The position numbers and the translations under genes were made by a program. Positions 9,019 through 22,735 of a stretch of 42,306 nucleotides of DNA are shown here, in pieces. The notes beneath the pieces are model-generated. The model saw nothing but the letters and a program-made list of their open reading frames with translations, did no database searches and had not been told where the DNA came from. The stretch is from a virus (Duplodnaviria; Heunggongvirae; Uroviricota; Caudoviricetes). Numbering within the stretch: the first letter of the stretch is position 1; each line of letters begins with the position of its first letter. The DNA is taken from IMG/VR virus record IMGVR_UViG_2617271049_000012; one strand, 5' to 3'.

Positions 9019-10906
9019 TGCAGCCGGTGCGATAGCAACAGGGCTTGTATCTCTCAATATTCCGGTACCACTGACGACAGTTCAGTGGGCTGATCAGCAT
9101 TATTATCTGCCAAAAGAGTCTTCATATACTCCCGGGCAATGGGAAACACTGCCGTTTCAGGTTGCCATCATGAACAGCATGGGGAATGACCGGATCCGCA
9201 CCGTTAATCTGATTAAATCGGCGCGTGTTGGTTACACCAAAATGCTGTTGGGGGTGGAGGCTTATTTTATTGAACACAAATCCCGTAACAGCCTGCTTTT
9301 TCAGCCGACAGATTCTGCGGCAGAAGATTTTATGAAATCCCATGTCGAACCAACGATAAGAGACGTTCCTGTATTACTGGAGCTGGCTCCGTGGTTTGGC
9401 AGAAAACATCGGGACAACACGCTTACCCTGAAACGTTTCTCCTCCGGTGTGGGATTCTGGTGTCTGGGCGGAGCTGCTGCCAAAAACTACCGTGAAAAAT
9501 CTGTGGATGTGGTCTGCTATGACGAACTCTCCTCGTTTGAACCGGATGTGGAAAAAGAAGGTTCACCAACTCTGCTTGGCGATAAGCGTATCGAAGGTTC
9601 GGTATGGCCTAAATCCATACGCGGCTCAACGCCCAAAATTAAAGGTTTTTGCCAGATTGAAAAAGCCGCGAACGAATCTGCACATTTTATGCGGTTTTAT
9701 GTGCCATGCCCTCATTGTGGTGAAGCCCAGTATCTGAAGTTTGGCGATGATGCGACAACCTTTGGCCTGAAGTGGGAGAAGGGCAAGCCGGAGACGGTGT
9801 ATTACCTGTGTGAACATAATGGCTGCGTGATCCGTCAGTCGGAACTTGACCAGACCGACGGGCGGTGGATTTGTGACAATACCGGGATGTGGACGCGTGA
9901 CGGTCTGACATTTTACAGCGCCGGTGATGAGGAAATCCCGCCACCGCGCTCAATCTCGTACCACATCTGGACGGCATACAGCCCGTTCACCACCTGGGTA
10001 CAGATTGTTTATGACTGGCTTGATGCACTGAAGGATCCGAATGGCGTCAAGACGTTCATTAACACCACGCTGGGGGAGCCTTATGAAGAGGCTGTGGCAG
10101 AAAAACTGAGCTTTGAGTTATTGCTGGAAAAAGTCTGCCACTATGATGCGCAGGTTCCCCTGCGGGTGGTTTACCTGACCGCAGGGATCGACTCTCAGAA
10201 AAACCGTTATGAGATTTATGTCTGGGGCTGGGCTCCTGGCGAAGAAGCTTTTCTGATTGACAAGCAGATCATCATGGGGAGACCGGAAGATGAGGACACC
10301 CTTAAACGCGTTGATGCCGTGATCCGGAAAAAATACCGTCATGCAGATGGCACTGAAATTTCCATTTCCCGCGTCTGCTGGGATACCGGTGGTATTGACC
10401 AGGACATTGTGTATCAGCGATCCAGAAAACACGGCACTTTTTTTGTGCTCCCCATCAAAGGGGCGTCGGTGTACGGCAAGCCGGTGATCACCATGCCAAA
10501 AAAGCGAAACCAGCGTGGGGTGTTTTTGTGTGAGGTGGGTTCCGATACCGTCAAGGAAATGCTGTATGCGCGTTTTGCCCTGCCGGTGGTATCTGCCAGT
10601 GAAGTCGCACCGTATACCTTCCGTTTTCCGGATAACCCGGACATTTTTTCTGATGTTGAAGCTAAACAACTCGTGGCAGAAGAGCTGGTTGAAAAAGTTG
10701 TGAACGGGCGGGTGAAACTCCAGTGGGATGCCAGAAAACGGCGTAATGAAGCTCTGGACTGTCTGGTGTATGCCTATGCAGCGCTGCGCATTTCCGTTCA
10801 GCGGTGGCAACTGGATCTGGATGCACTGGCCCGCGCCAGAAGAGATGAACAGGACGACGATGAAATGACTATTGAAGAAATCGCGGCTGCTCTGAGTGGA
10901 GGATAA
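8990..10906 (+). CDS. A: Terminase large subunit A
   Basis: About 639 aa, colinear with lambda gpA (HYYLPKES...WETLPFQ.AIMN.MG.D.IR.VN..KSARVGY.KMLLGV.AYFIEHK...VACPHCGE.QYLKFGD...). Confidence 0.95.
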
Positions 10907-10909
10907 GTG

Positions 10910-11119
10910 ATGATTTATACGCATGAAATGCTATGCGATGCCCGCCGGGCGTTACATGAACTGATGATCGGACGTGCTGTGGTTTCCGTCAGCAAGGACG
11001 GGCGTCAGGTTCAGTATTCGCGGGCGACAATTGGTGAACTGCGTCAGTATATTGAAGAGCTGGAAAGTGCGCTGGGTGTATCCGGACGGCGTCGTGGCCC
11101 GGCAGGAGTGGGGCTGTGA
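10910..11119 (+). CDS. W: Head-tail joining protein W
   Basis: About 69 aa; similar to lambda gpW (...AR.ALH.LM.G...V.V.KDGR.V.......L..YI.ELE.....RRRGPAG). Confidence 0.8.
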   Translation: MIYTHEMLCDARRALHELMIGRAVVSVSKDGRQVQYSRATIGELRQYIEELESALGVSGRRRGPAGVGL

Positions 11120-11928
11120 ACGGGGAACTGGTGGATATTCATGGGCAGCCTTTACGGCAAGGCATGGGATATTCTGGTGGTGGTTCCGGGTTCGGTGGGC
11201 AAATGGCAGAATGGCTGCCTGCACCGGAAAGTGCCGACGTGGCGCTCTTACCTTCCATTCATCTGGGTAACGCCCGCGCGGATGAGCTGGTCCGTAACAA
11301 CGGTATTGCATCGAATGCAGTGGAAATTCATAAGGATCATATTGTCGGGCACATGTTTCGTCTGAGTTACCGTCCCAACTGGCGCTGGCTGGGGATGTCG
11401 GAAGCAGATTCACATGCTTTTATTGAAGATGTTGAGGCGGCGTGGATGGAATACTGCGATCCGGTGTTTGGTACGATGGATGTGGAAGGGCGTCGTTCGT
11501 TTACCGAATTCATTCGTGAAGGGGTGGGGGTCCATACGTTTAACGGTGAAATTTTTGTCCAGCCCGTATGGGATGCGGAATCCACGTCATTATTCCGGAC
11601 GAAATTCAAAACCATCAGCCCGAAGCGTGTCAGTACACCCGGTTATGGTACCGGCGATCGTTTTATGCGTGCCGGGGTGGAAATAAACCGACACGGAAAA
11701 GCGCTGGCCTACCATGTTCAGGATGATGACTGGCCCGGCTACGGTGTCAGTAAATGGACACGAATTACGGCAACACTGCCTTCCGGACGACCGGGAATGA
11801 TCCATGTGTTTCAGCCACAGGAAGACGGGCAGACCCGCGGGGCCAACCAGTTTTATTCTGTAATGGAGCGTCTCAAGATGCTCGACACACTGCAGGCCAC
11901 GCAACTGCAGTCGGCGGTGGTTCGCGCC
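11116..11928 (+). CDS. B: Portal protein B, 5' portion (about 271 codons); gene interrupted by mobile element insertion
   Basis: Colinear with lambda gpB N-terminal half up to ...TQLQSAVVRA; after the junction the frame runs into 18 unrelated codons and a stop (ORF end 11982). Confidence 0.85.
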
Positions 11929-11930
11929 AT
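11924..11930. repeat. attL core (GCGCCAT), left copy of direct repeat
   Basis: Identical 7-mer at the right junction (22729..22735); flanking bases TTATG versus GTATG. Confidence 0.6.
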
Positions 11931-12059
11931 TTATGTCTATTATCTCCCCGTAGTTGTCGCCACCATTCATCAACTCCACTAAAACCCTTGATATGTCTGG
12001 AATGTCGTTTTTTGTATTTATGATGACCGTTCATTACCTTTCGTGTTTTTCGCGGTTTT

Positions 12060-12112
12060 GTGTATTGCAATGTGTATTGCAAGTTGGCGTTTGGATGGGG
12101 TGTGTATTGCAA
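12060..12112. repeat. Three direct copies of GTGTATTGCAA near attL, upstream of int (candidate arm-type or regulator binding sites)
   Basis: Copies at 12060-12070, 12072-12082 and 12102-12112; related copies near attR (22633..22654). Confidence 0.55.
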
Positions 12113-12131
12113 ATTGACGTGTAGGCTACAT

Positions 12132-13373
12132 ATGGCTATCGAGAATAAACTGACTGACAAACTTCTGAAAAGTCTTGCAGGTAAGCCGCAGGACAGACAA
12201 AAAATCATGGCTGATGGGCGGGGGCTATCTGTTCGTGTAAGCGTGGTTGGGGGAATTAGTTTCGTTTTTTACTATCGTATTGGCGGCAGGGATGCCCCTC
12301 CGGTATGGCTGACCCTTGGGCGTTATCCTGATATGTCTCTGGCAGCCGCCAGGAGATTACGCGACCAGTGCCGTGAATGGCTGGCGGAAAATCTGGATCC
12401 TCGCAGACAAATAAAACTTGTAGCTGAAAAAAACATGCGCCCTGTAACTGTAAGGGATGCGGTGCTTTACTGGTACGATAATCACGCCAGGACAGCCAGA
12501 AAGCAGCATGAGTATTTAATAAAAAGATTTGAAAAGCATATTTTTCCATATATCGGAGATATGGCTATAGAACAGTGCAAATTGCATACCTGGCTTACTG
12601 TATTTGACAGAATTAAAAAAAATGCTCCTGTTATGTCTGGTGCTATTTTTCTTGATATTAAACAGGCGTTACGTTTTTGCCGTATCAGGCAATACATTAG
12701 TTGCGATCCATTCGGTGATATTAACGTTAGTTATGTTGGACGTTCAGCAGGCATAAGGGATCGTGTTCTGAGTATTAATGAAGCCGCTGACGTATGGTCT
12801 TATGCCTATGGCAACAATTTACTTACCCTTTCATCAATACATAACCGAAGAATTATGGTTATCTGCCTGGTGTTTGGTTGCCGTCAGCAGGAGGCGCGGT
12901 TATCCACTTGGGAAGAATGGGATTTAAAAAACTGGATTTGGACAGTTCCAAAAGAGCACAGCAAGAACGGCGAGGTTATTGTAAGACCAGTCCCTGATGG
13001 AATAAAACAATGGGTTATTAATCTTTATGCGGAAACAAAGCACCGGGATTGTGTTATCGGTAGATCACTGAAGCGAGCGACAATAACAGGAGCAGCAAGC
13101 CGGATATGTAGGCGGCTAGGGCATGATGTAAATGGTCTGTGGTGCATACATGATTTCAGGCGTACATTTTCAACAATGCTTAACGATATGGGTGCCGATC
13201 CTTATATTGTAGAGCTTCTGCTTGGTCATAAAGTTAAAGGTGTGGCGGGTGTTTATAATAAAAGCAAGCATGTAAAGAAAAAACTTGAGGTTCTTAATAT
13301 GTGGGTTAATTACCTTAACACGATAGCCGGATTTAATAATAACGTTATTGAACTGAGTAAAGAGGTTGTTTGA
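12132..13373 (+). CDS. int: Tyrosine integrase, P4-type
   Basis: N-terminal P4-integrase-like region (LTDKLLKSL...KIMADGRGLSVRVSVVGGISFVFYYRIGGRD...WLTLGRYPDMSLAAARR) and C-terminal catalytic region (HDFRRTFSTMLNDMG...ELLLGHKV..VAGVYNKS); adjacent to attL. Confidence 0.9.
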   Translation: MAIENKLTDKLLKSLAGKPQDRQKIMADGRGLSVRVSVVGGISFVFYYRIGGRDAPPVWLTLGRYPDMSLAAARRLRDQCREWLAENLDPRRQIKLVAEKNMRPVTVRDAVLYWYDNHARTARKQHEYLIKRFEKHIFPYIGDMAIEQCKLHTWLTVFDRIKKNAPVMSGAIFLDIKQALRFCRIRQYISCDPFGDINVSYVGRSAGIRDRVLSINEAADVWSYAYGNNLLTLSSIHNRRIMVICLVFGCRQQEARLSTWEEWDLKNWIWTVPKEHSKNGEVIVRPVPDGIKQWVINLYAETKHRDCVIGRSLKRATITGAASRICRRLGHDVNGLWCIHDFRRTFSTMLNDMGADPYIVELLLGHKVKGVAGVYNKSKHVKKKLEVLNMWVNYLNTIAGFNNNVIELSKEVV

Positions 13374-13374
13374 T

Positions 13375-13632
13375 ATGTCAGTTTATTCACTTGTTGATGA
13401 AAAAGATTTTACTGCAATGCCGGATATTGATCGTGTCATTCGTGAAAAAGAATGCGTGGCACTTACTACGCTGGCAAATTCAACACGCTGGAAACTGGAA
13501 AAGACAGGTAAGTTCCCAAAACGTATTAAGATTGGTGAACGTGCCGCTGGCTATCGTCTCTCGGAGATTCAGGCGTGGATCCGTGGCGATTGGCACCCAG
13601 GATGGAAACCGGAAAAAACAAAACAGCAATAA
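13375..13632 (+). CDS. alpA: AlpA-family transcriptional regulator/excisionase
   Basis: Small HTH protein with AlpA-like motif (TGKFPKRIKIGERAAGYRLSEIQAWI); overlaps the int stop. Confidence 0.8.
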   Translation: MSVYSLVDEKDFTAMPDIDRVIREKECVALTTLANSTRWKLEKTGKFPKRIKIGERAAGYRLSEIQAWIRGDWHPGWKPEKTKQQ

Positions 13633-13648
13633 CCAGGAGATAAACACA

Positions 13649-13673
13649 GCCCCGCTCAATGCGGGGTTTTTTG
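13649..13673 (+). terminator. Rho-independent terminator
   Basis: CCCCGC-TCAAT-GCGGGG hairpin followed by TTTTTTG. Confidence 0.6.
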
Positions 13674-13691
13674 TATGTGAGGTAAAAAGCG

Positions 13692-14270
13692 ATGAATAAA
13701 AATATTGCCGTGACGGGCAAAGGTGACGCTCGTCTAGTGAAAAAATTCTGTGATATTCGTGATCTGGTCGTTCTGCGCTTTGATGGTGTGAACGTTCGCG
13801 TGGTGTATCTGAACGGCGATCCGTGGTTTGTTGCAGTTGACGTGTGCGCTGCGCTGGAAATTGTTGATCACAAGGTTGCGTTACGCCGTCTCGATGATGA
13901 TGAAAAGGGGGAGTGTTTAATACCCACCCTTGGCGGAAATCAAACAATGCGAACTGTATGCGAGTCAGGTTTCTACAAACTAATAGCCCGTAGCCGCAAA
14001 GCAACGACGCCTGGCACGTTCGCCCATCGTTTCAGTAACTGGGTATTCAGAAATGTGATACCGGGTATCAGAAAAACGGGGGCTTATGGTATCCCGTGGG
14101 GCGCATTACAGGATTTTTCCCGCCGTAAAGAGCAATATCAGATAAGTGCCAGCGAGAAGGGGAGGGAGCTACAGGCATGTAAGCGCAAAAAGCGTGAGCT
14201 GGAGGAAGAAGAAAAAAGGCTGATACGTGAATATCAGCCTGAGTTTTACTTTGGTGAGCGTATTCAGTAA
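13692..14270 (+). CDS. BRO-N domain protein (antirepressor-like)
   Basis: N-terminal Bro-N pattern (LRFDGVNVRVVYLNGDPWFVAVDVCAALEI...ESGFYKLIARSRKA); charged coiled-coil C-terminus. Confidence 0.75.
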   Translation: MNKNIAVTGKGDARLVKKFCDIRDLVVLRFDGVNVRVVYLNGDPWFVAVDVCAALEIVDHKVALRRLDDDEKGECLIPTLGGNQTMRTVCESGFYKLIARSRKATTPGTFAHRFSNWVFRNVIPGIRKTGAYGIPWGALQDFSRRKEQYQISASEKGRELQACKRKKRELEEEEKRLIREYQPEFYFGERIQ

Positions 14271-14552
14271 CCACTCGCAGTGCTGATTATACGGTACATC
14301 GTGTTAACCGGGAAGCTACCCACCAGCAAGGCAAAATCTTCTGCTAAAAAATGATATATGGTCAGCCGTCCGGAAAGCATGAAATTTTACAAAAATGGAA
14401 AATGAAGATTTTTATTGTGCTGGTGGGTAAAAACAAAAAGCGCCCCGTTGCCGGAGCGCCTTTGTGAACAATTAACCTACTGCGCAAAAAATGAATCTGA
14501 GCAGTGGGATTATATCAACCGTGTGACGAAGCGCCACAATTGCCGGATAACA

Positions 14553-14583
14553 GGCAAAACAAAGGCCACCCGCTACGGTGGCC
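14553..14583 (-). terminator. Rho-independent terminator for the minus-strand small-gene pair
   Basis: GGCCACC-CGCTAC-GGTGGCC hairpin with an A run on the + strand upstream (a U run on the minus-strand transcript). Confidence 0.5.
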
Positions 14584-14686
14584 CTTCAACACAAGCTACA
14601 CGTTATCCCCAACGCATGAGCATCACCAACAATGCCACATTTGCGGCTAGTGGGCAATGTGATCAGTGTGCTGGCTTGCTGGTGGG

Positions 14687-14884
14687 CTATTCCTGCTCTT
14701 TAGCATCGCCATGCTGCGATGTTTTCCAGGTATGCGATCCCATTTTTGTGCGCCTGTACTCTTTAAGGAACTTCTCAAGGACAAACGCACATGGTGCGAA
14801 TCTTTCCTGTTCTTGTTCGCTTACCGCGTTTTTGCGTTGTTTTTTCCTGGATGAGGATAATTTCTTTAATGATTTGTCAGTCAT
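14687..14884 (-). CDS. Small basic protein, paralog of the adjacent ribbon-helix-helix-like repressor
   Basis: 65-aa ORF between the RHH gene and a minus-strand terminator; shares ...SEQEQ...F.....FVLE... and the C-terminal AKEQE with 14942..15139. Confidence 0.4.
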   Translation of the reverse strand: MTDKSLKKLSSSRKKQRKNAVSEQEQERFAPCAFVLEKFLKEYRRTKMGSHTWKTSQHGDAKEQE

Positions 14885-14941
14885 CGTAGATACCTGTAAC
14901 CCAGTGCGCCACAGTTCACCGCACCACAGCGCTGGTGATGG

Positions 14942-15139
14942 TTACTCCTGCTCTTTGGCCTTCCGGCGCTGTTCATATTTTAATTTGCGTCCACAGGCAT
15001 CTAAGACCCATGCGGAAAAATTAGCACTAGGATTAGTTAATTTTTCTTGTTCAACACTGGCATCAATCCCATCTATAAGCTCGTGCGGGAATCGAATGTT
15101 TTTCTTTGCTGATTTGTTGTTTGTGTTTCCGCTAGACAT
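14942..15139 (-). CDS. Putative ribbon-helix-helix (Arc/Mnt-like) repressor
   Basis: 65 aa; N-terminal beta-strand-like KNIRFPHELIDGID; GAGGTG RBS 7 nt upstream of ATG; palindromic operators immediately upstream. Confidence 0.5.
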   Translation of the reverse strand: MSSGNTNNKSAKKNIRFPHELIDGIDASVEQEKLTNPSANFSAWVLDACGRKLKYEQRRKAKEQE

Positions 15140-15165
15140 TGGTACACCTCATTTAAATGGATTTG

Positions 15166-15246
15166 ATGGGCGCACACAATACAGCAAAAAAAGTGAGAAG
15201 TTAAGTATTGACATGTGCGCACACATAATTTTAATCTGTGCGCACA
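15166..15246. promoter_or_regulatory. Divergent control region with three palindromic operators TGTGCGCACA (one imperfect) overlapping a TTGACA -35 element
   Basis: Sites at 15168-15178 (GGGCGCACACA, imperfect), 15214-15223 and 15237-15246 (perfect 10-bp palindromes); TTGACA at 15208-15213. Confidence 0.65.
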
Positions 15247-15344
15247 GTTTGGGTTGCATTGCTCAAATTAAGCAACGCCCCGCAGTGCTCGCAACACATG
15301 CAGGGCGTCTAACCACCAACGATAGCAATAGTATCGAGGTAGCT

Positions 15345-15548
15345 ATGTTAAATCATACCACACACCCGCAAGGGCGGGACTCGCACAACCTGAATAAATA
15401 CATCTGGCGTTTTATCGCCCTGAGCACGGCACAGCCGCGCGTGATTACCATTGAGGCCACCAGCGAACAGGAAGCACGCCAGCAATCCCCGGCTGGCTGC
15501 GTGATGGTATTCGCCGCTCGTATTCGTCAGGAGGTGCGCCATGATTAA
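15345..15548 (+). CDS. Small satellite protein, possibly Icd-like (weak recollection only)
   Basis: First + strand ORF downstream of the operator region (MLNHTTHPQ...YIWRFIALSTAQPRVITIEATSEQEARQQ...); lies inside a spurious 377-aa track ORF. Confidence 0.4.
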   Translation: MLNHTTHPQGRDSHNLNKYIWRFIALSTAQPRVITIEATSEQEARQQSPAGCVMVFAARIRQEVRHD

Positions 15549-15753
15549 CCTGTCACTTACCGACCTTAACCGCATTCAGTTTCGTGAGAAATTTACCGGG
15601 CAGCTACTGGTCAATGTGGATAAAGGTCGCGTGGTGTGTAATTACCACCTGCCAGATGAAGCCATTGTCGCAACAAGGGAATCATTACAGGAACTCGCAG
15701 AACGTGCCGGAATGATTAACGCGAATATTCAGGGGGTGAGACATGTGCAATAA
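15541..15753 (+). CDS. Hypothetical small protein (70 aa)
   Basis: ATG overlapping upstream stop (ATGA); part of a tightly packed + strand operon. Confidence 0.45.
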   Translation: MINLSLTDLNRIQFREKFTGQLLVNVDKGRVVCNYHLPDEAIVATRESLQELAERAGMINANIQGVRHVQ

Positions 15754-15982
15754 CCCACGTCCGGACGCAGCCGCCGAAGCCATCAAAACGCTGATGCACG
15801 CGCTGATTGATATTTCATGCACGGCAGCAATCGCAGAAAAATACATTACCAGAGAGACGGAATATACAGGGGAAATAATCCCCCATTCGCTGGCCTACGC
15901 ACAGCTTACCGCTGATATGGCACTGAATGAGGCCAGGGCTATCCTGATTGCTGATTGTGAAAATGGGGGGGGTTATGCGTGA
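15743..15982 (+). CDS. Hypothetical small protein (79 aa)
   Basis: Overlapping-start operon member; no domain recognised. Confidence 0.4.
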   Translation: MCNNPRPDAAAEAIKTLMHALIDISCTAAIAEKYITRETEYTGEIIPHSLAYAQLTADMALNEARAILIADCENGGGYA

Positions 15983-16208
15983 TGATCGTTTTAATGCCCT
16001 GAAACAGGAATTTGATGGCGCACCGGAAGATACAGATATTGCGCTGTTATGTGTTGCTGACATGGTAAAAGCTGCATGTTTTTTACTGGAAACCGCCGAA
16101 CATTCAGGAACGGGTAGCGATATTCTCAATATTGCGTCGGACTATGCGGAATATGTGGCAGAGACGCGTTACAGAAGTAAATTCCCGGAGGGGGTGAGCC
16201 ATGCATGA
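15948..16208 (+). CDS. Hypothetical small acidic protein (start ambiguous: 15948, 15963 or 15975)
   Basis: Operon member; GGGGG RBS-like tract before ATG 15975. Confidence 0.4.
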   Translation: MLIVKMGGVMRDDRFNALKQEFDGAPEDTDIALLCVADMVKAACFLLETAEHSGTGSDILNIASDYAEYVAETRYRSKFPEGVSHA

Positions 16209-16434
16209 TATTTACAATGACACAGTAGACCATGCATACAGCGCACTTGCTTACAGTGAAAACATGCTTGAAATATTGCGCTTATGGCTTGAAACGCTTG
16301 GCGATAATGAAAGAGATAAACGCAACAGCAATATTGCAACAGCATTAATAACGCTTCTTGAGCCTGTAATAAATGAACTGCAAGAAATAGACATCTTGCA
16401 CGACAGATATAAAGAGCCACACACCGGAGAATAA
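16201..16434 (+). CDS. Hypothetical small protein (77 aa)
   Basis: ATG overlapping previous stop; operon member. Confidence 0.4.
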   Translation: MHDIYNDTVDHAYSALAYSENMLEILRLWLETLGDNERDKRNSNIATALITLLEPVINELQEIDILHDRYKEPHTGE

Positions 16435-16439
16435 AAACC

Positions 16440-16739
16440 ATGAAAAAGAAAAATTCTGGCTTTACTGCCAGCGGCCCCGCTCGGCCTGAAATCCGCCCCG
16501 GCGATATTTTCCGGGATAACTACGGCGGCACGGTAACGATTAAAAGTATTGCCGGACGGTGCGTTACTTACCGCCGTGATGGGTACAGCTACGACTGCGT
16601 GATGCCTGTTTATCAGTTCCGGCGTGATTTTTCTCTGGAACAGGCCGCACCACACAAACAGCCCACCAGCAACGCAAAGGCACGGGCGAACATTCAGAAA
16701 ATGAAAAACATGATTAACGCATTCAGGGGTAAAAAATGA
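16440..16739 (+). CDS. Hypothetical small basic protein (99 aa)
   Basis: Operon member directly upstream of rep; stop overlaps the rep start. Confidence 0.4.
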   Translation: MKKKNSGFTASGPARPEIRPGDIFRDNYGGTVTIKSIAGRCVTYRRDGYSYDCVMPVYQFRRDFSLEQAAPHKQPTSNAKARANIQKMKNMINAFRGKK

Positions 16740-18151
16740 AACTGGCACCGAACTTAAAAAAACAGCCGCACGACAAAATGACCGAAGTCATTATTTTTGC
16801 GGGTAGTGATGCCTGGGCGCACGCGAAACAATGGCAGGAGCAGGACGGGCGACTTGCTGGCGACAATGTTCCGCCTGTATGGCTTGGAGACAACCAGCTT
16901 GACGAACTGGCAGACCTGAAAATCATCGATGATGGTCGCTATTGTGTCCGGCTGTACAAGGCAGGCCACATCAAGCCGTCAAATATTAATGCCATCGGGC
17001 AAAAGCTGGCGGCGGCAGGTGTACGGGATGCGAATTATTACCCTGAGGGAATGCACAGCCAGAAGCTGGAGAACTGGCACGACTACCTGCAACGGATCCG
17101 CGAACAGACAGAGCGCGGGGAAATACTTACTGACGAGCAATACAGCCAGCGAAAAACCACGCTACCAATGAGCATTGGATCTGCAGGGTACGACACACAG
17201 CTTGATTATGTCGTTAAGGGCGTGATTCCGGCTAATTCATTGTGCAGCACATACGGCTCGAGCGGTTCCTATAAATCGTTCCTCGCGTGTTCCTGGGCGT
17301 GTCATGTTGCCACGGGTCGCCACTGGGGAGGCCGCAGGGTGGCGCATGGTTCGGTGATGTATGTCGTCGGTGAAGGGGGGATAGGTGTCCCCCGTCGTAT
17401 CAAGGCATGGGAAATCGTTAATGATGAACGGGTGGAAAATCTGTACCTGGTAAACCGCCCGATTTTTCCGGCAGTCCCGCTTGATGTCGATGAAATGGTC
17501 ATCGCTTCCCGCCAGGTTGAACGGGAAACGGGTAAACCGGTACGCATGATTATTCTGGATACGCTGGCGCGTTGCTTTGGCGGTAATGATGAAAATGACG
17601 CGCGGGATATGGGGGCGTTTATCCGTGGATGTGACGAACTGAAACGACGCACAGGGGCCACGGTGCTGGTGGTTCACCATTCCGGCAAGGATGAAACAAA
17701 GGGGGCGCGTGGTTCCAGTGCATTTCGTGCATCTCTGGACGCTGAATACCGTATTCGCCGTGAAGGTGCGGACAGTGAAGCCCTGGTTATCTCCTGCACC
17801 AAAATGAAGGACGCGGAGGAACTGAAAGAGGCTGCATATGATTTACGCGTGGTGGAGCTTTTTACCGACACTGACGGGGAGTTAATCACGTCGCTGGTGG
17901 TTGTGGATAAGCCGCGCCCACCTGTTGAACTGGAGCGCATCGAGGAGGCCGGGAACAAGACGGAGAATCATGCCGCGCTATGGCAGTGCATCAGAACGCG
18001 AACAGCACACGGGGAGGCGTGCACTATCGCCCTTCTCCGCGACGATATGAAAAAGCTGGGGTATGAAATGAAAAACTTCCGGCGCTGGCTGTACAAGCTG
18101 GAAAGCGACGGCGTAATCGCTATTGACGGTGATTATGTGCGCCCACTGTAA
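16736..18151 (+). CDS. Replication initiator/helicase (RepA-like RecA-fold ATPase with N-terminal extension)
   Basis: Walker A-like YGSSGSYKSF and Walker B-like RMIILDTLARCFGG; iteron array immediately downstream. Confidence 0.7.
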   Translation: MKLAPNLKKQPHDKMTEVIIFAGSDAWAHAKQWQEQDGRLAGDNVPPVWLGDNQLDELADLKIIDDGRYCVRLYKAGHIKPSNINAIGQKLAAAGVRDANYYPEGMHSQKLENWHDYLQRIREQTERGEILTDEQYSQRKTTLPMSIGSAGYDTQLDYVVKGVIPANSLCSTYGSSGSYKSFLACSWACHVATGRHWGGRRVAHGSVMYVVGEGGIGVPRRIKAWEIVNDERVENLYLVNRPIFPAVPLDVDEMVIASRQVERETGKPVRMIILDTLARCFGGNDENDARDMGAFIRGCDELKRRTGATVLVVHHSGKDETKGARGSSAFRASLDAEYRIRREGADSEALVISCTKMKDAEELKEAAYDLRVVELFTDTDGELITSLVVVDKPRPPVELERIEEAGNKTENHAALWQCIRTRTAHGEACTIALLRDDMKKLGYEMKNFRRWLYKLESDGVIAIDGDYVRPL

Positions 18152-18353
18152 AAAGTGAGGAGCAAAAGTGAGGATAGCGGGTAATTTAACAAAAAATCAG
18201 CGCTACTCCTCACTTTCTCACCTGTATATAGGTCAAAAAGTGAGGAATAAAAAATACATTGCAAAACAACGCATTACAGAAGAAAAAAAACAGGTGAGGA
18301 GCAGGACGGGAATAACAAAAAGTGAGGAATAAAAGTGAGTAGAGGTGAGGAAT
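18150..18353. repeat. Iteron array (about 8 copies of AAAGTGAGGA in both orientations): putative satellite replication origin
   Basis: Copies at about 18153, 18165, 18207 (inverted), 18236, 18291, 18318, 18331 and 18343, within AT-rich DNA 3' of rep. Confidence 0.7.
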
Positions 18354-18603
18354 GACCAGAAAAACCAGAGATAAGACAGCACCAAAATATCGCGCATTAG
18401 ACATGACAGAGCACGCCTTAAAGGTGGCAATCAGAACAATAGACCGCCATGCCGGAGAAGGATACGCAAAAGCACATCCAGAACTGATACGCGCATTCAT
18501 GACCACAGCGGCGGCAAACTTTGCCACGCTGACAGAACGGGAGATTGCCGAAGCGGAACAGGTGACAACCATCAACGTTAAAAACGGAGAGCATACAGCA
18601 TGA
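18352..18603 (+). CDS. Hypothetical protein (83 aa)
   Basis: ATG right after the iterons; stop overlaps the ssb start. Confidence 0.4.
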   Translation: MTRKTRDKTAPKYRALDMTEHALKVAIRTIDRHAGEGYAKAHPELIRAFMTTAAANFATLTEREIAEAEQVTTINVKNGEHTA

Positions 18604-19022
18604 CAGCACAGATAGCGGCTTACGGGCGGCTGGTGGCTGACCCGCAGTTAAAGACCACCAGCAAAGGGACACAAATGGCGATGGCGAGTATGGCGGTTCC
18701 CCTTCCGTGCAGCCAGGCAGATGACGGAACGGCGACGATGTGGTTATCCGTCCTGGCGTTTGGCAGGCAGGCCGACGCACTGGCAAAGCACCACAAAGGC
18801 GAACTGGTGAGCGTGGCGGGTAACATGCAGGTAAGCCAGTGGACAGGCCAGAACGGCGAAACGCGGCAGGGCTGGCAGGTTATCGCAGACAGCGTAATCA
18901 GTGCCAGAACGGCGCGACCGGGCGGCAAAAAAGGCCAGCAGGGCCAGGCTACTGACGCACTGAACAGGGCAAAACAACAGGCGGGAAATGATGATCCGTA
19001 CGGGGATAACATACCGTTTTAA
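18600..19022 (+). CDS. ssb: Single-stranded DNA-binding protein (SSB-like)
   Basis: OB-fold-like core, Gly/Gln-rich linker and acidic C-terminal tip (DDPYGDNIPF) resembling the SSB DDDIPF tail. Confidence 0.7.
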   Translation: MTAQIAAYGRLVADPQLKTTSKGTQMAMASMAVPLPCSQADDGTATMWLSVLAFGRQADALAKHHKGELVSVAGNMQVSQWTGQNGETRQGWQVIADSVISARTARPGGKKGQQGQATDALNRAKQQAGNDDPYGDNIPF

Positions 19023-19035
19023 GCAACGAGTGACA

Positions 19036-19063
19036 GAAGCCGGGATTTTTCCCGGCTTTTTTG
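19036..19063 (+). terminator. Rho-independent terminator after ssb
   Basis: AGCCGGG-ATTTTT-CCCGGCT followed by TTTTTTG; a second hairpin (19076-19100) with an upstream A run could terminate minus-strand transcription. Confidence 0.6.
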
Positions 19064-19196
19064 TGCGCAAAAAAAATCCCCCGGGATGAGGTTCCGGGGG
19101 ATTTCACGCCGCTAACGTGATTAGCGCTGAATGACTCTGTGGTACAAGGAGTAAAACCACGGCATCATGATTTCATGATTTGCAACAACAGTCAAT

Positions 19197-19219
19197 ATCA
19201 TTGCAAAAAATGCAATGAT
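19197..19219. promoter_or_regulatory. Perfect palindrome ATCATTGCA-AAAAA-TGCAATGAT upstream of the satellite capsid operon (candidate activator/operator site)
   Basis: 9-bp inverted arms around a 5-bp A spacer; shares the ATTGCAA core with the repeats at both island ends; preceded by direct repeats CATGATTT. Confidence 0.5.
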
Positions 19220-19280
19220 GATTAAAATCATGAATGACTTTTCGTTATGTTTATTTTTTAGTCAAAGAGGAATCTCATTT

Positions 19281-19487
19281 ATGGGAACACAGAAGCCGGG
19301 CGGTGTATCCGTGTACATCAGCCCCGATATTATCGCCGCACTTAATGCGCGCTTTGAGGAGAACGCAGAGGCAGGAAAAAAAATCGGCCTTGATCCGTTG
19401 TGCCTGGTGAAGCCGTCAGTCGGCTGGATGGTACGCAGCCATTTACGCGCTGCGCTTGGTATGAATCAGCCTCATGGGGGTGAGTAA
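19281..19487 (+). CDS. Hypothetical small protein preceding the capsid gene
   Basis: ATG with AAGAGGAA RBS; stop overlaps the capsid ATG (TAATG). Confidence 0.4.
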   Translation: MGTQKPGGVSVYISPDIIAALNARFEENAEAGKKIGLDPLCLVKPSVGWMVRSHLRAALGMNQPHGGE

Positions 19488-20542
19488 TGACAGCGCCGCA
19501 ACTGGTAAGCACACCAACGCTACTGAAAAATATCGGGCGCGAAGATGTGCCGGAATTTAAATTTAATCCACTCTTTACTACGTTGTTCTTTCCGAACGTC
19601 GCTACTTTCAGCACCAGAGATATTGCACTTGATACGCTGGATATTGAAAACGTGGTCATGAGTCCGTTTTGTTCTCCAATGTCAGGCAGCCAGGTTATGC
19701 GTGACAAAGGTTTCACAACGAACACGTTCACGCCGGGTTATATGAAGCCCAAACACGTTATTGATCCCACCAAAACAATCATGCGCATGCCTGGAGAACA
19801 GATCGGCAATGGTCAGTCTTCCCCGGCACTACGCCGCGTAAAAATGGTTCACGACAGCCAGAAAAAACAGCTTGCTGCCATCAAAGCGCGTGTTGAATGG
19901 CTGGCGGTCAATGCCATCACAACAGGCCGTAACGTTATTGAGGGCGAAGGCATTGAGCGTTATGAAATTGACTGGGGATTACCCGAAACCAATCATATTA
20001 CGCAGGCTGGCGGGAAAGAATGGTCAAAACAGGATGCCGAAACGTTTGATCCGATAAGCGACATTGAGGCTTACGCTGATTTTTCCGAAGGTACGGTAAA
20101 TATTATCGTCATAGGTGGCGAAGCCTGGCGTATTTTGCGCTCGTTCCGTCGATTCCGCGAACTAATGGACACGCGTCGCGGTTCAAACTCGTCACTTGAA
20201 CTTGCGCTAAAAGATTTGGGCGGCGTTGTCAGCTTCAAGGGGTATCTCGGTGATGTGGCGATCGTGGTTTATTCCGGTCGTTATGACGACGAAAACGGGC
20301 AGCAGCAATATTTCCTGAAACAAAACATGATGGTTTTCGGCAATACCGAAAATAAAGGCCTTGTTGCTTATGGTGCCATCATGGATCAGGACGCGGCACG
20401 CGAGGGATTTTCTGAGGGGATGTACTACCCGAAAAATTATATCGTACCGGGCGATCCGGCGATTGAATACGTGCAGACGCACAGCGCCCCGCAGCCAGTA
20501 CCCGTGGATATTGGTCGCTTTGTTACCGTCGAAGTGAAATAA
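19487..20542 (+). CDS. Major capsid protein, lambda gpE-like (satellite-encoded paralog)
   Basis: 351 aa colinear with lambda gpE (F.F.PLF...FF.....PGY.KPKH...NITQAGG.EWSK.D..TFDP..D.EAY......NII...WR.LRSF..F.E..DTRRGSNS.LE.A.KDLG..VS.KGY.GDVAIVVYSGRY...). Diverged from the host-phage E at 25544..26572. Confidence 0.9.
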   Translation: MTAPQLVSTPTLLKNIGREDVPEFKFNPLFTTLFFPNVATFSTRDIALDTLDIENVVMSPFCSPMSGSQVMRDKGFTTNTFTPGYMKPKHVIDPTKTIMRMPGEQIGNGQSSPALRRVKMVHDSQKKQLAAIKARVEWLAVNAITTGRNVIEGEGIERYEIDWGLPETNHITQAGGKEWSKQDAETFDPISDIEAYADFSEGTVNIIVIGGEAWRILRSFRRFRELMDTRRGSNSSLELALKDLGGVVSFKGYLGDVAIVVYSGRYDDENGQQQYFLKQNMMVFGNTENKGLVAYGAIMDQDAAREGFSEGMYYPKNYIVPGDPAIEYVQTHSAPQPVPVDIGRFVTVEVK

Positions 20543-20552
20543 AGGGGATCGT

Positions 20553-20882
20553 ATGCCAACACCTTACACGCAATTCCTTTCCGGCACGCAGGAACTGGTC
20601 AGCACGCTGGCCTGTTTTGCCAGTGCCGGAGAAATTAAAGCGAGAACTCCGCTGATGCAGAACGGCGCGGGCCTGATGGTTGAGTGGGACGGTACACCCG
20701 GTAAGGCGGTGTATCTGACCATATCGGACATTAACACGGCCACAAAAAACCGCGCACAGGTTTATAAGTGCGGGGTTTTTAATATCGATGAAATTAACTG
20801 GCCTGATACAGCGGACACGTTCGAGAAAAAAGTGTCGGCTTTTGTTGGTTCCGGTATTTCCGTGCAGCCTTTAGGGCAATAA
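20553..20882 (+). CDS. Head decoration protein, lambda gpD-like (satellite-encoded)
   Basis: 109 aa; gpD-like motifs (TPLM......WDGT.G.AV.......YK.G.F....WPD.A.....AF.G..IS) directly after the capsid gene. Confidence 0.65.
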   Translation: MPTPYTQFLSGTQELVSTLACFASAGEIKARTPLMQNGAGLMVEWDGTPGKAVYLTISDINTATKNRAQVYKCGVFNIDEINWPDTADTFEKKVSAFVGSGISVQPLGQ

Positions 20883-20896
20883 TTTTGTGGTGATTT

Positions 20897-21322
20897 ATGA
20901 CTGAGAAAGCAAATTCAACCAGAGCATTGATCATGGCACTGCCTGAGGCGCAGAAATACCCGACGCTTGCGGAAAATCTCGCAAATAATGGCGCATCACT
21001 GACAGAAGCCCGAACGGTGCTTACTGCAAAGGCTGAGAGTGATAAACAGCGCATAGAGGGTATCAAGGCGTTACCGCTGGCATCAAAATACCCTGAGTTC
21101 ACCAGTAAGCTGATTGAGTGTGGTTCTGAAGTAATGACAGTAACCTATGCACAAACGTTACTGGCTGCCGTGGATGCCCAGGCAATGATGCAGGAAAAGA
21201 AAACGGCTTTTCTGTTTGAAGCGTACATGGAAAAGCACAGCCCGAAATGTGTTGGGCCAGCAGCCGGTGATGGCAACGCCGGACTGACCGAAGATGAAAA
21301 GCTGTTGCTGTCTGTTAAGTAA
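20897..21322 (+). CDS. Putative scaffold protein (Nu3-like) with ALPEA/ALPLA repeat motifs
   Basis: Two repeats (ALPEAQKYPTLAENLANNGASLTEARTVL / ALPLASKYPEFTSKLIECGSEVMTVTYAQTLLAAVD) resembling the ALPEAKGREQLA..LAEQPGMTVEQAKTLLAAAP repeats in the host-phage C/Nu3. Confidence 0.5.
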   Translation: MTEKANSTRALIMALPEAQKYPTLAENLANNGASLTEARTVLTAKAESDKQRIEGIKALPLASKYPEFTSKLIECGSEVMTVTYAQTLLAAVDAQAMMQEKKTAFLFEAYMEKHSPKCVGPAAGDGNAGLTEDEKLLLSVK

Positions 21323-21336
21323 CTGAAATGAACGTT

Positions 21337-21368
21337 CGCGAGGCTGGCAAGGTCTCGCGATTTTTTTT
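21337..21368 (+). terminator. Rho-independent terminator
   Basis: TCGCGAG-loop-CTCGCGA followed by TTTTTTTT. Confidence 0.6.
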
Positions 21369-21394
21369 GTATCCGGAACGGTGGTGATCGCCCC

Positions 21395-21480
21395 AATTTT
21401 CACGGGTCCTTTCCAGAATCAGAAACACCGCGGGGCGGCAGACGCGCAAAAACGCGCTATTTATGAAAATTTTTCAGGAA
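21395..21480 (+). other. Satellite cos site (cosQ/cosN-like) mimicking the host-phage cos
   Basis: CACGGGTCCTTTCC...CGCGGGGCGGCAGACGCGC...CGCTATTTATGAAAATTTTTCAGG parallels the host cos at 8250..8330; directly upstream of the satellite terS. Confidence 0.75.
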
Positions 21481-21620
21481 AAAGCATGTCGGTACTTCTC
21501 GCGCATAACTGTTTGTTTTTATTAAAATCAACCACCAGGAACATACGACATCATAAAGCCCAAAAATCCTGTTTTTTTGGCGTTTCATGTCGGAACTGGT
21601 TTTTGATAAGGAATTGATAG

Positions 21621-22223
21621 ATGAATGTTAATAAAAATAATCTTGCGAAGATTTTTGGCGTCGATCCGCGCACGATTGAACGATGGCAAACGCAAGGGCT
21701 TCCCCATGTATCTGGTGGGGGTAAAGGTGTGGAGGTGACTTTCGACTCTGCGCAGGTGATCGAATGGTATGCACAGAGGGAGAAGGACATCGAAAACGAA
21801 AAACTCCGCAGGGAACTTGATGATTTACGTGCCGATGGTGAATCAGATTTACAGCCAGGCACAACAGAATACGAACGCTATCGCCTCACCAAAGCACAGG
21901 CGGACGGGCAGGAGCTAAAGAACACCAAGGAGACAGGGGAAGTTATCGATACTGAGTTCGTGCTCTATGCGCTTCGTGGGCTGGCGAGCCAGATTTCTTC
22001 GATCATGGATAGTTTACCGCTCACAATGCAAAGGCAGTTCCCCGCGATGACTCAGACAATGATCGAGGGACTGAGGAAGGAAACAGCACGGGCCTGTAAT
22101 GCGTGCGCTAAAACTGCCGATAACCTGCCCCGCATTCTGGAAGACTACCTGATGGAAACAACCGGAAACGTGCCGGAGAAATTACGGCAACAGAAAGGTG
22201 AGTGGCAGCCGCGCAATTATTGA
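21621..22223 (+). CDS. Terminase small subunit, Nu1-like (satellite-encoded paralog)
   Basis: N-terminal region near-colinear with the host Nu1 ([79 protein letters not shown]); C-terminal part diverged and longer (200 aa). Confidence 0.85.
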   Translation: MNVNKNNLAKIFGVDPRTIERWQTQGLPHVSGGGKGVEVTFDSAQVIEWYAQREKDIENEKLRRELDDLRADGESDLQPGTTEYERYRLTKAQADGQELKNTKETGEVIDTEFVLYALRGLASQISSIMDSLPLTMQRQFPAMTQTMIEGLRKETARACNACAKTADNLPRILEDYLMETTGNVPEKLRQQKGEWQPRNY

Positions 22224-22233
22224 ACAAAACTGA

Positions 22234-22296
22234 GAAAGGATCTGATAACGTCATTTTTGGCCCAAAATGACCACTGTCAGATCCTTTCTTTTTTTG
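22234..22296 (+). terminator. Long-stem terminator after the satellite terS
   Basis: AGAAAGGATCTGA...TCAGATCCTTTCT inverted repeat followed by TTTTTTT. Confidence 0.55.
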
Positions 22297-22470
22297 ATGA
22301 TTTTACCATTAAACAATGAGTTACAGAGAAGAAGAACGGATCTGACTTTTCCCGAAAAATTTTCATAAACAGTTAAGAATTGCGCGTATGGCTACCCCCG
22401 GTGTTTTATTTTCCAGGAAGGACCCGCCACAATTACGGCATTGTTTTCCATCACCACGGAGGCCATGACA

Positions 22471-22656
22471 ATGACCGAAGCCGAAATGCTCAAAATGATT
22501 CGCCGCGTTACCGGATCCAGCAAGACAGCAGGCAAACAGGAGACCACGCAGCCGGACAGCGTGATAGCCGAAAATTACGCGCGTGTGGTGGCTGAGGTGA
22601 TGCGCCGTGACGGTATTCACAAGCAACAATTTGCGTATTGCAATGTGTATTGCTAA
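22471..22656 (+). CDS. Hypothetical small protein at the right end of the island
   Basis: GGAGG RBS 9 nt upstream of ATG 22471; 3' end runs through the GTATTGCAA repeats near attR. Confidence 0.3.
   Translation: MTEAEMLKMIRRVTGSSKTAGKQETTQPDSVIAENYARVVAEVMRRDGIHKQQFAYCNVYC
22633..22654. repeat. Two direct copies of (G/T)CGTATTGCAA / GTGTATTGC near attR
   Basis: Same motif and orientation as the three copies near attL. Confidence 0.55.
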
Positions 22657-22728
22657 CCCTCCAAACGGGTGAAATATGCAAACATAACATATTGTTTTGT
22701 CTTTTTATTTTTTCGTATCTTTTCATAA

Positions 22729-22735
22729 GCGCCAT
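22729..22735. repeat. attR core (GCGCCAT), right copy of direct repeat
   Basis: Identical to 11924..11930; its last base pair is the first base of the portal codon ATG (M) that resumes the reading frame. Confidence 0.6.

Follow-up and report, generated by a model that had tools for sequence, protein, structure and literature searches.

The DNA analysed here, a window of 42,306 nucleotides from the IMG/VR record IMGVR_UViG_2617271049_000012 (Caudoviricetes), is spanned by a lambda-like helper prophage, into whose portal gene a satellite of about 10.8 kb (11931-22735) is inserted, and this element is a helper-embedded phage-inducible chromosomal island (HE-PICI). Between its integration genes and its replication gene, at 13692-16739, the satellite carries a gene for a Bro-N protein, two small leftward genes, a 205-bp intergenic region with repeated palindromes, and six small rightward open reading frames (ORFs) that lead into the gene for a RepA-family helicase (Table 1). 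Tommasini, Mageeney and Williams (2023, PMC10111431) have already described the zone as such, under the name "Bro zone", as a dynamic one among the four zones (Integration, Bro, Replication and Late) that make up Gram-negative PICIs. The results below make it probable that the zone is the accessory and early-control part of the satellite, composed of a cargo gene, a ribbon-helix-helix (RHH) repressor/operator switch and a translational gate formed by an antisense RNA. All presence counts refer to 91 related loci, and all pairwise dN/dS values to the 94 loci that were fetched.

Table 1. Features of the helper prophage and the satellite in the window, by position
Feature	Position	Strand	Remarks
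Helper TerS (terminase small subunit)	8452-9018		
Helper TerL (terminase large subunit)	8987-10906		
Helper W	10907-11119		
Portal gene, N-half	11116-11930		C-half restarts at 22729
attL core GCGCCAT	11924-11930	+	attR partner core at 22729-22735
Tyrosine integrase	12132-13373	+	40-43% identical to loci annotated as tyrosine recombinase
AlpA-family regulator/excisionase	13366-13632	+	PF05930, E 3.8e-15
Intrinsic terminator between alpA and Bro-N	13648-13668	+	8-bp GC stem and T6; 16 nt past alpA
Bro-N protein, 192 aa	13692-14270	+	PF02498, E 5.8e-16, 59.3 bits (cut-off 25.6)
Non-coding gap	14271-14686		two minus-strand terminators (14463-14436, 14586-14561) ending the leftward operon; three Chi sites (14320, 14419, 14678)
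Second leftward gene, 65 aa	14687-14884	-	phrog_21027; motif ERFAPCAF.LEKFLKEY; 52/91 loci; dN/dS 0.21
Divergent regulator, 65 aa	14942-15139	-	DUF3950/YlcI-YnfO family; predicted RHH
O3 half-site GGGCGCACACA	15168-15178		in front of regulator gene
-35 TTGACA	15208-15213		rightward promoter, 16-nt spacer
O1 TGTGCGCACA	15214-15223		fills promoter spacer
-10 TTTAAT	15230-15235		rightward promoter
O2 CTGTGCGCACAG	15236-15247		at about +1; second TGTGCGCACA copy at 15237
Predicted SymR-like cis-antisense RNA, ~76 nt	15270-15346	-	start near 15345, end ~15270
Antisense -10 TGgTATGAT	15360-15352	-	within first codons of icd-like gene
ORF1, Icd-like, 67 aa, pI 9.3	15345-15548	+	NF033153, 69.8 bits (cut-off 25); operon leader cistron
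ORF2, 70 aa, neutral	15541-15753	+	phrog_340; 25/91 loci
ORF3, 79 aa, acidic (pI 4.6), helical-looking	15743-15982	+	phrog_5146; 53/91 loci
ORF4, 77 aa, acidic	15975-16208	+	phrog_24341; 29/91 loci
ORF5, 77 aa, acidic, net charge -10	16201-16434	+	phrog_2196; 39/91 loci
ORF6, DUF4222, 99 aa, pI 10.3	16440-16739	+	PF13973, E 4e-24; 80/91 loci
RepA-family helicase	16736-18151	+	distal and largest gene of the same operon

An earlier note on this DNA, made from the sequence alone, had dealt with the Bro-N gene and the six small ORFs only, as if the interval 14271-15344 were empty, and this turned out to be wrong: two conserved genes lie there on the minus strand and end at two strong terminators of that strand, and the interval further contains operators, a promoter and a structured leader. 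A 377-aa ORF at 14415-15548, which overlaps the leftward genes and the features of both the switch and the leader, is an artefact. The product of the divergent gene next to the six ORFs matches the DUF3950/YlcI profiles above their cut-offs, and the core of its AlphaFold2 model (pLDDT 85-90) shows the strand-helix-helix order expected for the predicted RHH fold. For the protein of the window DUF3950 was the sole Pfam match, with no RHH family of Pfam above threshold, and a Foldseek search with the RHH model found nothing; other alleles of the regulator gave sub-threshold matches to Arc, HicB, RHH_1 and DUF6290. A divergent gene of 57-101 aa lies directly upstream of the icd-like gene in all 91 related loci.

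The intergenic region upstream of the six ORFs contains two TGTGCGCACA palindromes, starting at 15214 and 15237, together with the half-site O3, and this decamer is found nowhere else in the 42 kb, in the helper part of which neither paralogues nor extra operators were found. Repeats are present at matching positions in 82 of 85 loci, with a fixed placement relative to TTGAC(A/G) and with a sequence specific for the allele: the regulators of the 85 loci fall into 24 clusters, each with its own repeat, and a repeated 8-mer is shared by 249 of 283 pairs within a cluster as against 44 of 3287 pairs between different clusters. The locus L014 illustrates this co-variation, its int, alpA and Bro-N genes being 100% identical to those of the window and its small ORFs being the same, while its regulator shares only 35% identity with that of the window and its repeats have another sequence (GTGGGCCACAC). 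Distinct clusters with the common strand motif QKTAR[IV]PL use one and the same operator, GTGCAAGTCAC. As judged from these sequence patterns, the region carries the signature of an immunity-type repressor/operator module, to which the RHH protein would bind. Both the RHH protein and its partner end in ...AKEQE (14942-14960 and 14687-14700), and RHH alleles with different DNA-binding parts retain one of two C-terminal tails, RRQRRKAKEQE or RGIEPKG, which may mark a joint left by recombination or give an inducer or a protease something to grip.

Downstream of the promoter, the leaders of all loci have in common a GC-rich hairpin and the motif CUAACCACC, and a second, small hairpin is situated at the Shine-Dalgarno (SD) sequence. 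A covariance model built from 19 leaders detected this element upstream of the icd-like gene in 90 of the 91 loci and gave no match in 124 kb of control DNA. In the alignment of 66 distinct leaders 96.3% of the cells are paired and compensatory changes occur at 8 of the 13 pairs, with a covariation score of 0.220 against 0.044 for shuffled alignments, none of 500 reaching the observed value, and at most 0.053 for the slid controls. Read as the plus strand, the paired cells comprise 826 Watson-Crick pairs, no G.U pair and 31 A.C or C.A cells, the latter at 8 different pairs; read as the minus strand, the A.C cells become G.U wobbles, which brings the standard pairs to 857 of 858 cells. This strand bias indicates that the structure is kept in a minus-strand RNA, and a leader structure acting in the sense strand was rejected. 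The predicted antisense RNA folds into two hairpins (-38.7 kcal/mol, z -5.8), a 5' hairpin over the anti-SD sequence and a 3' terminator hairpin (15308 to 15275) followed by the U-rich tail UGCUUAAUUU.

The identity of this RNA is suggested by comparison with symE/symR of Escherichia coli. The full SymR model of Rfam (RF01809) matches the minus strand of four homologous leaders (L006, L011, L009 and L004) with 36.7, 36.1, 24.4 and 24.2 bits, all below the gathering score of 61 bits, the top two with E values of 0.003-0.004 in a 66-kb search. In the reverse direction, the model built from satellite leaders only was run against 10 kb of E. coli K-12 and found the symR locus as the sole match (24.1 bits, E 6e-4). 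In the alignment to K-12 symE/symR, the window sequence ATCATA at 15352-15357, which reads TATGAT with a preceding TGg on the minus strand, coincides with the -10 box of symR, a box that has been inactivated experimentally by Kawano et al. 2007 (PMC1891008). Two other RNA families were considered. The R1162 leader model (RF00043) gave a weak plus-strand match in the leader of the window, including CUAACCACCAA, and because this match amounts to just 18.5 bits, the gathering score being 55, the IncQ R1162 countertranscript RNA was dropped as a homologue and kept as an analogy only; an immunity RNA of the C4/CI/isrK kind was rejected, since neither RF01695 nor RF01394 matched at E up to 10. The data thus point to an antisense RNA of ~76 nt over the ribosome-binding site of the icd-like gene, a prediction that we hold with greater confidence than that for the architecture as a whole.

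The six co-directional ORFs fill 15345-16739, each preceded by an SD sequence of the GGAGG type, and they are joined by start/stop overlaps of 8-11 nt, one gap of 5 nt, and a 4-nt ATGA overlap of the last one into RepA. Pairwise dN/dS is 0.18 for the icd-like gene, 0.46 for phrog_340 (ORF2), 0.29 for phrog_5146 (ORF3), 0.33 for phrog_24341 (ORF4), 0.31 for phrog_2196 (ORF5), 0.41 for the DUF4222 gene, 0.17 for RepA and 0.27 for Bro-N, and this purifying selection indicates that the six ORFs and Bro-N are translated genes. The earlier note was therefore right in taking the six ORFs with overlapping starts as real, as it was in placing them in a satellite, between the integration and regulation genes and the replication gene. 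All six recur in related elements, so that the lack of conservation, which the earlier note had named as an argument against its own proposal, was not observed. Its description of the six as free of recognised domains is inaccurate: ORF1 and ORF6 belong to the Icd-like and DUF4222 families, and all six match PHROG families. ORF2 to ORF5 gave no informative homology in searches of Pfam, PHROG, NCBIfam and PADLOC.

ORF1 aligns with Icd of phage P1 by hhalign with a probability of 96.2% (E 2e-9), indicating at the sequence level that it is a true homologue of P1 Icd; plain tblastn of ORF1 against the phage collection did not reach P1. ORF2 to ORF5, each found in 25-53 of the 91 loci (27-58%), are mosaic accessory cargo, and ORF3 to ORF5 encode proteins with pI of about 4.55 and net charges of -6 to -10. 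The start of ORF4 is most likely the ATG at 15975, and not the TTG at 15948. Since phrog_2512 (154 aa) covers both ORF3 and ORF4, we considered that these could be halves of one frameshifted gene, and rejected it: another gene intervenes between the two in L003, they occur independently (53 versus 29 loci), and ORF4 has its own SD sequence and ATG with the usual 8-nt overlap. ORF6 is predicted to form an SH3/Tudor-like barrel with a basic C-terminal helix. In 50,697 phage records tblastn found no DUF4222 match and a single match for the icd-like gene, in a satellite-like record of 16.5 kb, which suggests that the genes of the region are largely satellite-specific. In E. coli CFT073, however, the xis-exo region of one lambdoid prophage includes a DUF4222 gene, beside what remains of the excisionase (L094, 5192-5431), and DUF4222 is therefore not strictly confined to satellites.

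The Bro-N gene stands apart from this operon. The slot after alpA is variable, being occupied by Bro-N in 15 loci, by an unrelated 283-aa protein in 15 others and by many singletons, and Bro-N would thus be the cargo gene of a variable slot; it is present in 31 of the 91 loci, as compared with 81 for RepA and 80 for DUF4222. The Bro-N domain makes up residues 34-124 of the protein, and the C-terminal ~65 aa are charged, coiled-coil-like and free of domain matches. The earlier note had called this protein antirepressor-like, and the Bro-N half of that description stands, whereas no antirepressor C-terminal domain (ANT, KilA-C, P22_AR_C etc.) was found, Bro-N being the only Pfam match at E up to 0.1. 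The protein corresponds to positions 1-192 of the 255-position family phrog_2593, and a truncated pseudogene was rejected on the grounds that the 192-198-aa form is kept in 15 loci and is under purifying selection. Its SD sequence and ATG lie within 24 nt of the alpA terminator, and because this terminator is strong and leaves no room for a promoter, Bro-N would have no promoter of its own and would be made by read-through only. Sequence searches of the PDB with Bro-N, the RHH protein, DUF4222 and the Icd-like protein gave nothing useful.

Taken together, these observations can be arranged into one switch. The RHH protein would bind the TGTGCGCACA operators in the promoter spacer, at +1 and in front of its own gene, thereby repressing the early operon and controlling its own synthesis, and a constitutive SymR-like RNA would pair with the SD and start region of the icd-like gene. 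Since the cistrons are chained by overlaps of 4-11 nt, a block of icd-like translation would silence the whole chain, the six ORFs as well as RepA, in a manner resembling the gating of icd-ant by C4 RNA in P1. Upon derepression, an Icd-type inhibitor of cell division, the variable small acidic proteins, a DUF4222 adaptor and the RepA helicase would be produced, and replication would then start at the downstream iterons. The late transcription of the helper, modified by Q and entering from the split portal gene, may supply the read-through into Bro-N and may then run antisense over the RHH operon and on into the early operon, an idea that would extend the proposal of Tommasini et al. We thus propose that the six ORFs are the repressed, promoter-proximal part of the replication operon and are gated like icd in P1 immI. 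Helper sensing, if it resides in this region, would more plausibly lie in the RHH/operator/antisense switch or in the read-through of helper late transcription. Observed in the sequences are the reality of the genes, their homologies, the joint variation of operator and allele, and the covariation of the RNA with its strand bias; binding, repression, transcription of the RNA, read-through and every protein function are inferred. The roles assigned to the individual small proteins are offered with less confidence than the overall architecture.

Several points weigh against this arrangement. The leader of the window itself reaches no Rfam threshold, SymR not being reported for it, and for this reason the antisense RNA is deduced through the homologous leaders and the covariation; its putative promoter lacks a -35 element. 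A scan of 13300-16800 for consensus promoters gave no sigma-70 site, the proposed rightward -10, TTTAAT, failing the A2 rule of the scan. That regulator and operator go together could in part be due simply to their being linked as adjacent DNA. For EcCICFT073, the model Gram-negative PICI, activation by AlpA has been demonstrated, overexpression of AlpA being enough by itself to induce the island (PMC6092414), and the RHH repressor may therefore be secondary or overridden.

The earlier note had ranked the Bro-N protein and the six ORFs as the likeliest sites of anti-phage or helper-manipulating activity, and we consider it unlikely that any of them is a dedicated effector of that kind. The idea draws on the near-absence of the genes from the phage records, which makes them look satellite-specific, on the mosaic distribution of ORF2 to ORF5 and on their dN/dS (0.29-0.46), laxer than that of RepA. 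A Bro-network protein of PLE, moreover, represses the capsid promoter of the helper (PMC10111431), and Bro-N could act on helper capsid genes as CapR of PLE does, with the satellite supplying its own major capsid protein (MCP), decoration protein and TerS, while the acidic proteins could block helper assembly. Against all this, none of ten proteins matched a model of PADLOC-DB v2 at E up to 0.01, Pfam and NCBIfam gave no defence match either, the published immune hotspots of PICIs are the 5' end, the 3' end and the region beside pri (PMC11364771), and Bro-N has neither an effector nor an antirepressor C-terminal domain. Nor does the set of small ORFs follow the type of integrase or helper: L014 agrees with the window in both int and ORFs, while L051 and L076, with int ~90% identical, have only ORF3 and DUF4222. 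Furthermore, the ORFs are coupled to the replicase in an operon that appears doubly shut off at rest, so that they cannot give constitutive defence, and the homology of ORF1 to P1 Icd points to inhibition of host cell division and a leader-cistron role, and not to helper interference. It is thus preferable to regard the six ORFs as cargo of the early operon and not to predict a defence role for them. A narrower form of the effector idea, that ORF3 to ORF5 are entry-phase anti-defence factors (DNA mimics or anti-restriction proteins) expressed zygotically before any RHH repressor is present, as in the leading regions of conjugative plasmids, appears decidedly improbable; three consecutive proteins of such low pI, a repressor-controlled promoter that would fire in a naive cell, and a strong enrichment of Chi suggestive of RecBCD pressure would fit it, and the modest charge density and the lack of homology to ArdA, Ocr, Gam or any other family would not.

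The cassette at the head of the operon allows two further explanations. The icd-like gene and its antisense RNA may mainly form a module like a type I toxin-antitoxin system, with a stable toxin mRNA and a labile RNA as in symER, serving addiction or abortive infection, and we regard this as somewhat unlikely. In symE/SymR, to which the cassette is homologous, a toxic protein is kept in check by the RNA (PMC1891008), and Icd of P1, the homologue of ORF1, inhibits cell division according to the annotation of the P1 record; nevertheless, the cassette here heads a coupled operon of seven genes ending in the replicase, lies behind a repressor-controlled promoter, and has in P1 a homologous icd that serves as a translational gate for ant. 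That the hairpins instead work within the sense transcript, be it for attenuation, for processing or as an immunity RNA of the C4/CI type of P4 and P1, with no antisense transcript, is in our view highly improbable. RNAs of the C4/isrK type are reported in some PICI Bro zones (PMC10111431), and the R1162 leader match is on the plus strand, weak as it is; yet the C4 and isrK models found nothing in our searches, and the G.U/A.C test argues for the other strand. In addition, the U-run after the large hairpin is absent from the plus strand and present on the minus strand in most loci, and the complementarity between hairpin loop and ribosome-binding site, read by eye, is inconsistent between alleles.

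The assignment of the satellite to the HE-PICIs rests on its junctions and gene order. The 7-bp core repeat GCGCCAT is present at both junctions of the insert (11930/22729), and the two portal halves, when rejoined, read ...LQSAVVRA/MYAATIES..., which we take to match lambda gpB; the tail genes of the helper continue to 42 kb. The satellite encodes, in this order, the integrase, AlpA, Bro-N, the two leftward and six rightward small genes, the RepA-family helicase, a single-stranded DNA-binding protein, MCP, a decoration protein and TerS, all on the plus strand except for the RHH operon, and the late genes of the helper are also on the plus strand. Doubled TGTATTGC motifs, GTGTATTGCAATGTGTATTGC, lie at 12060-12080, ~133 bp from the core at 11924-11930, and at 22633-22653, ~80 bp from that at 22729-22735, as compared with the diagnostic distances from the attP centre, 81 +/- 2 bp for the upstream copy and 132 +/- 2 bp for the downstream one (PMC10111431). 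The satellite thus agrees with the HE-PICIs of that study in the split lambda-type late gene (portal, B), the co-orientation, the motif spacing, the order of int and AlpA followed by the Bro, Replication and Late zones, and the presence of Bro-N in the dynamic slot. It differs in that the study contains no DUF3950 RHH gene, allele-specific operators, SymR-like leader, Icd or DUF4222, and in that the C4/isrK-type RNAs of some published elements were not found in this satellite. The MCP of the satellite is 46% identical to that of the helper. Its late genes (19487-22223) were compared with the helper genes at 8452-9018 and 25595-26569, and the N-terminus of its TerS resembles the Nu1-type TerS of the helper. 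From these sequences, if helper interference or a redirection of packaging is sought, MCP, decoration protein and TerS would suggest themselves more readily.

Among the 5426 complete genomes of E. coli, 1865 carry parts of the region, mosaic throughout, and the order int-alpA-[variable]-RHH(-)-icd-small ORFs-replicase is kept across the 91 loci, which represent ~8 genera. Close relatives reside in late regions of other prophages: L001 (E. coli SA53-3) has head-tail joining genes on one side and baseplate genes on the other, and L092 (E. coli 042) is situated inside the terminase large-subunit gene of an HK97-like prophage, with a DUF927 primase in place of RepA. In L010 (Superficieibacter), the icd leader is present a second time (691-782, 59 bits), 5 kb upstream of the other copy, which suggests tandem or nested satellites. 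The int-alpA gap of relatives (e.g. L002 3616-4611, L017 1319-2248 and L058 1221-2024) forms a second variable slot with diverse proteins of 200-330 aa including DUF6387, many with a helix-turn-helix (HTH)-like N-terminus, and this slot may correspond to the immune hotspot published for the 5' end of PICIs. The int-alpA RNA motif of Rfam (RF02996) is found there at 45-63 bits, above gathering, in L003 (3117-3185), L004 (2618-2686) and L011 (3264-3329), and is absent from the window, in which int and alpA overlap.

Within the satellite, the non-coding gap with its terminators is flanked by 15-nt inverted repeats (14319-14333 and 14672-14686; 93% complementary) that include Chi, and at the corresponding gap of L001 and L092 a pseudogene was called by PGAP; the repeats may be a recombination scar or mark a small inserted module. 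The window contains 17 Chi sites (GCTGGTGG) as against 1.7 expected from shuffles: nine are in the regulatory and replication part of the satellite (14320-18662), including the three of this gap, others lie at 1591-5877, and none are in the late genes (18663-42306). This enrichment may protect replication products from RecBCD. Just downstream of RepA, at 18150-18350, at least 8 copies of AAAGTGAGGA in both orientations, with a 23-nt near-palindrome at 18204-18249, form a candidate iteron origin of the satellite.

The proposed switch shares elements with several known systems. One is immI of P1 (C4 RNA - icd - ant1/ant2), where, according to the record annotation, icd is the first cistron, its ribosome-binding site is blocked by C4 RNA, and it is needed for the expression of ant; a homologous Icd as first cistron, a small RNA on its ribosome-binding site, dependence of the downstream genes and a repressor-controlled promoter are common to both, these regulatory features being predicted on the satellite side. 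The satellite RNA is cis-encoded on the opposite strand, in contrast to the processed sense-strand RNA of P1 that acts on a2/b2, and an RHH repressor stands in place of C1, and small proteins plus a helicase in place of an antirepressor. With E. coli symE/SymR (PMC1891008; RF01809) the satellite cassette shares the GC hairpin, the CUAA(C/U)CAC motif, the SD hairpin, the -10 within the first codons and an RNA of ~77 nt overlapping SD and start codon; it differs in its scores below Rfam gathering, in an icd-like instead of an AbrB-fold SymE product, in RHH instead of LexA control of the promoter, and in heading a long operon. Like Stl (Rpr) of SaPIs and PICIs, the regulator is a small divergent one between the int side and the replication operon, with many alleles of element-own specificity, the difference being that the RHH proteins have 59-101 aa whereas Stl is a larger HTH protein, and that activation by AlpA is the known trigger of Gram-negative PICIs. 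There is also a likeness to plasmid copy control, in that the satellite, too, would have an RHH repressor and an antisense RNA over the ribosome-binding site of the first gene to govern a replication operon with a RepA-family helicase. CopG and RNAII of pMV158 follow such RHH-plus-countertranscript logic, and in IncQ R1162 a countertranscript RNA lies upstream of the RepA helicase. The satellite differs from R1162 in the low score of the leader match given above, in gene order and in the small ORFs.

Gram-negative PICIs are common agents driving gene transfer, about one in three complete E. coli genomes having them, and AlpA is their only known controller. The RHH/operator/SymR-like switch was not described in the literature searched, nor did we find there any link of PICIs with RHH repressors or SymR. 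We suggest tentatively, and short of calling it probable, that Gram-negative PICIs carry an unrecognised immunity module, in which tiny RHH proteins (DUF3950/YlcI-type, Arc-like) serve as master repressors with allele-specific operators, in combination with a SymR-like RNA and an Icd leader cistron. If true, this module would settle whether a global repressor exists in these satellites, would allow "immunity types" to be defined among them, and would provide a testable circuit for silence, induction and cross-regulation among co-resident satellites. It would also suggest a common origin of the chromosomal symE/SymR and the satellite cassette, and would assign a role to the DUF3950/YlcI-YnfO proteins and the "Icd-like" genes that are annotated in thousands of genomes.

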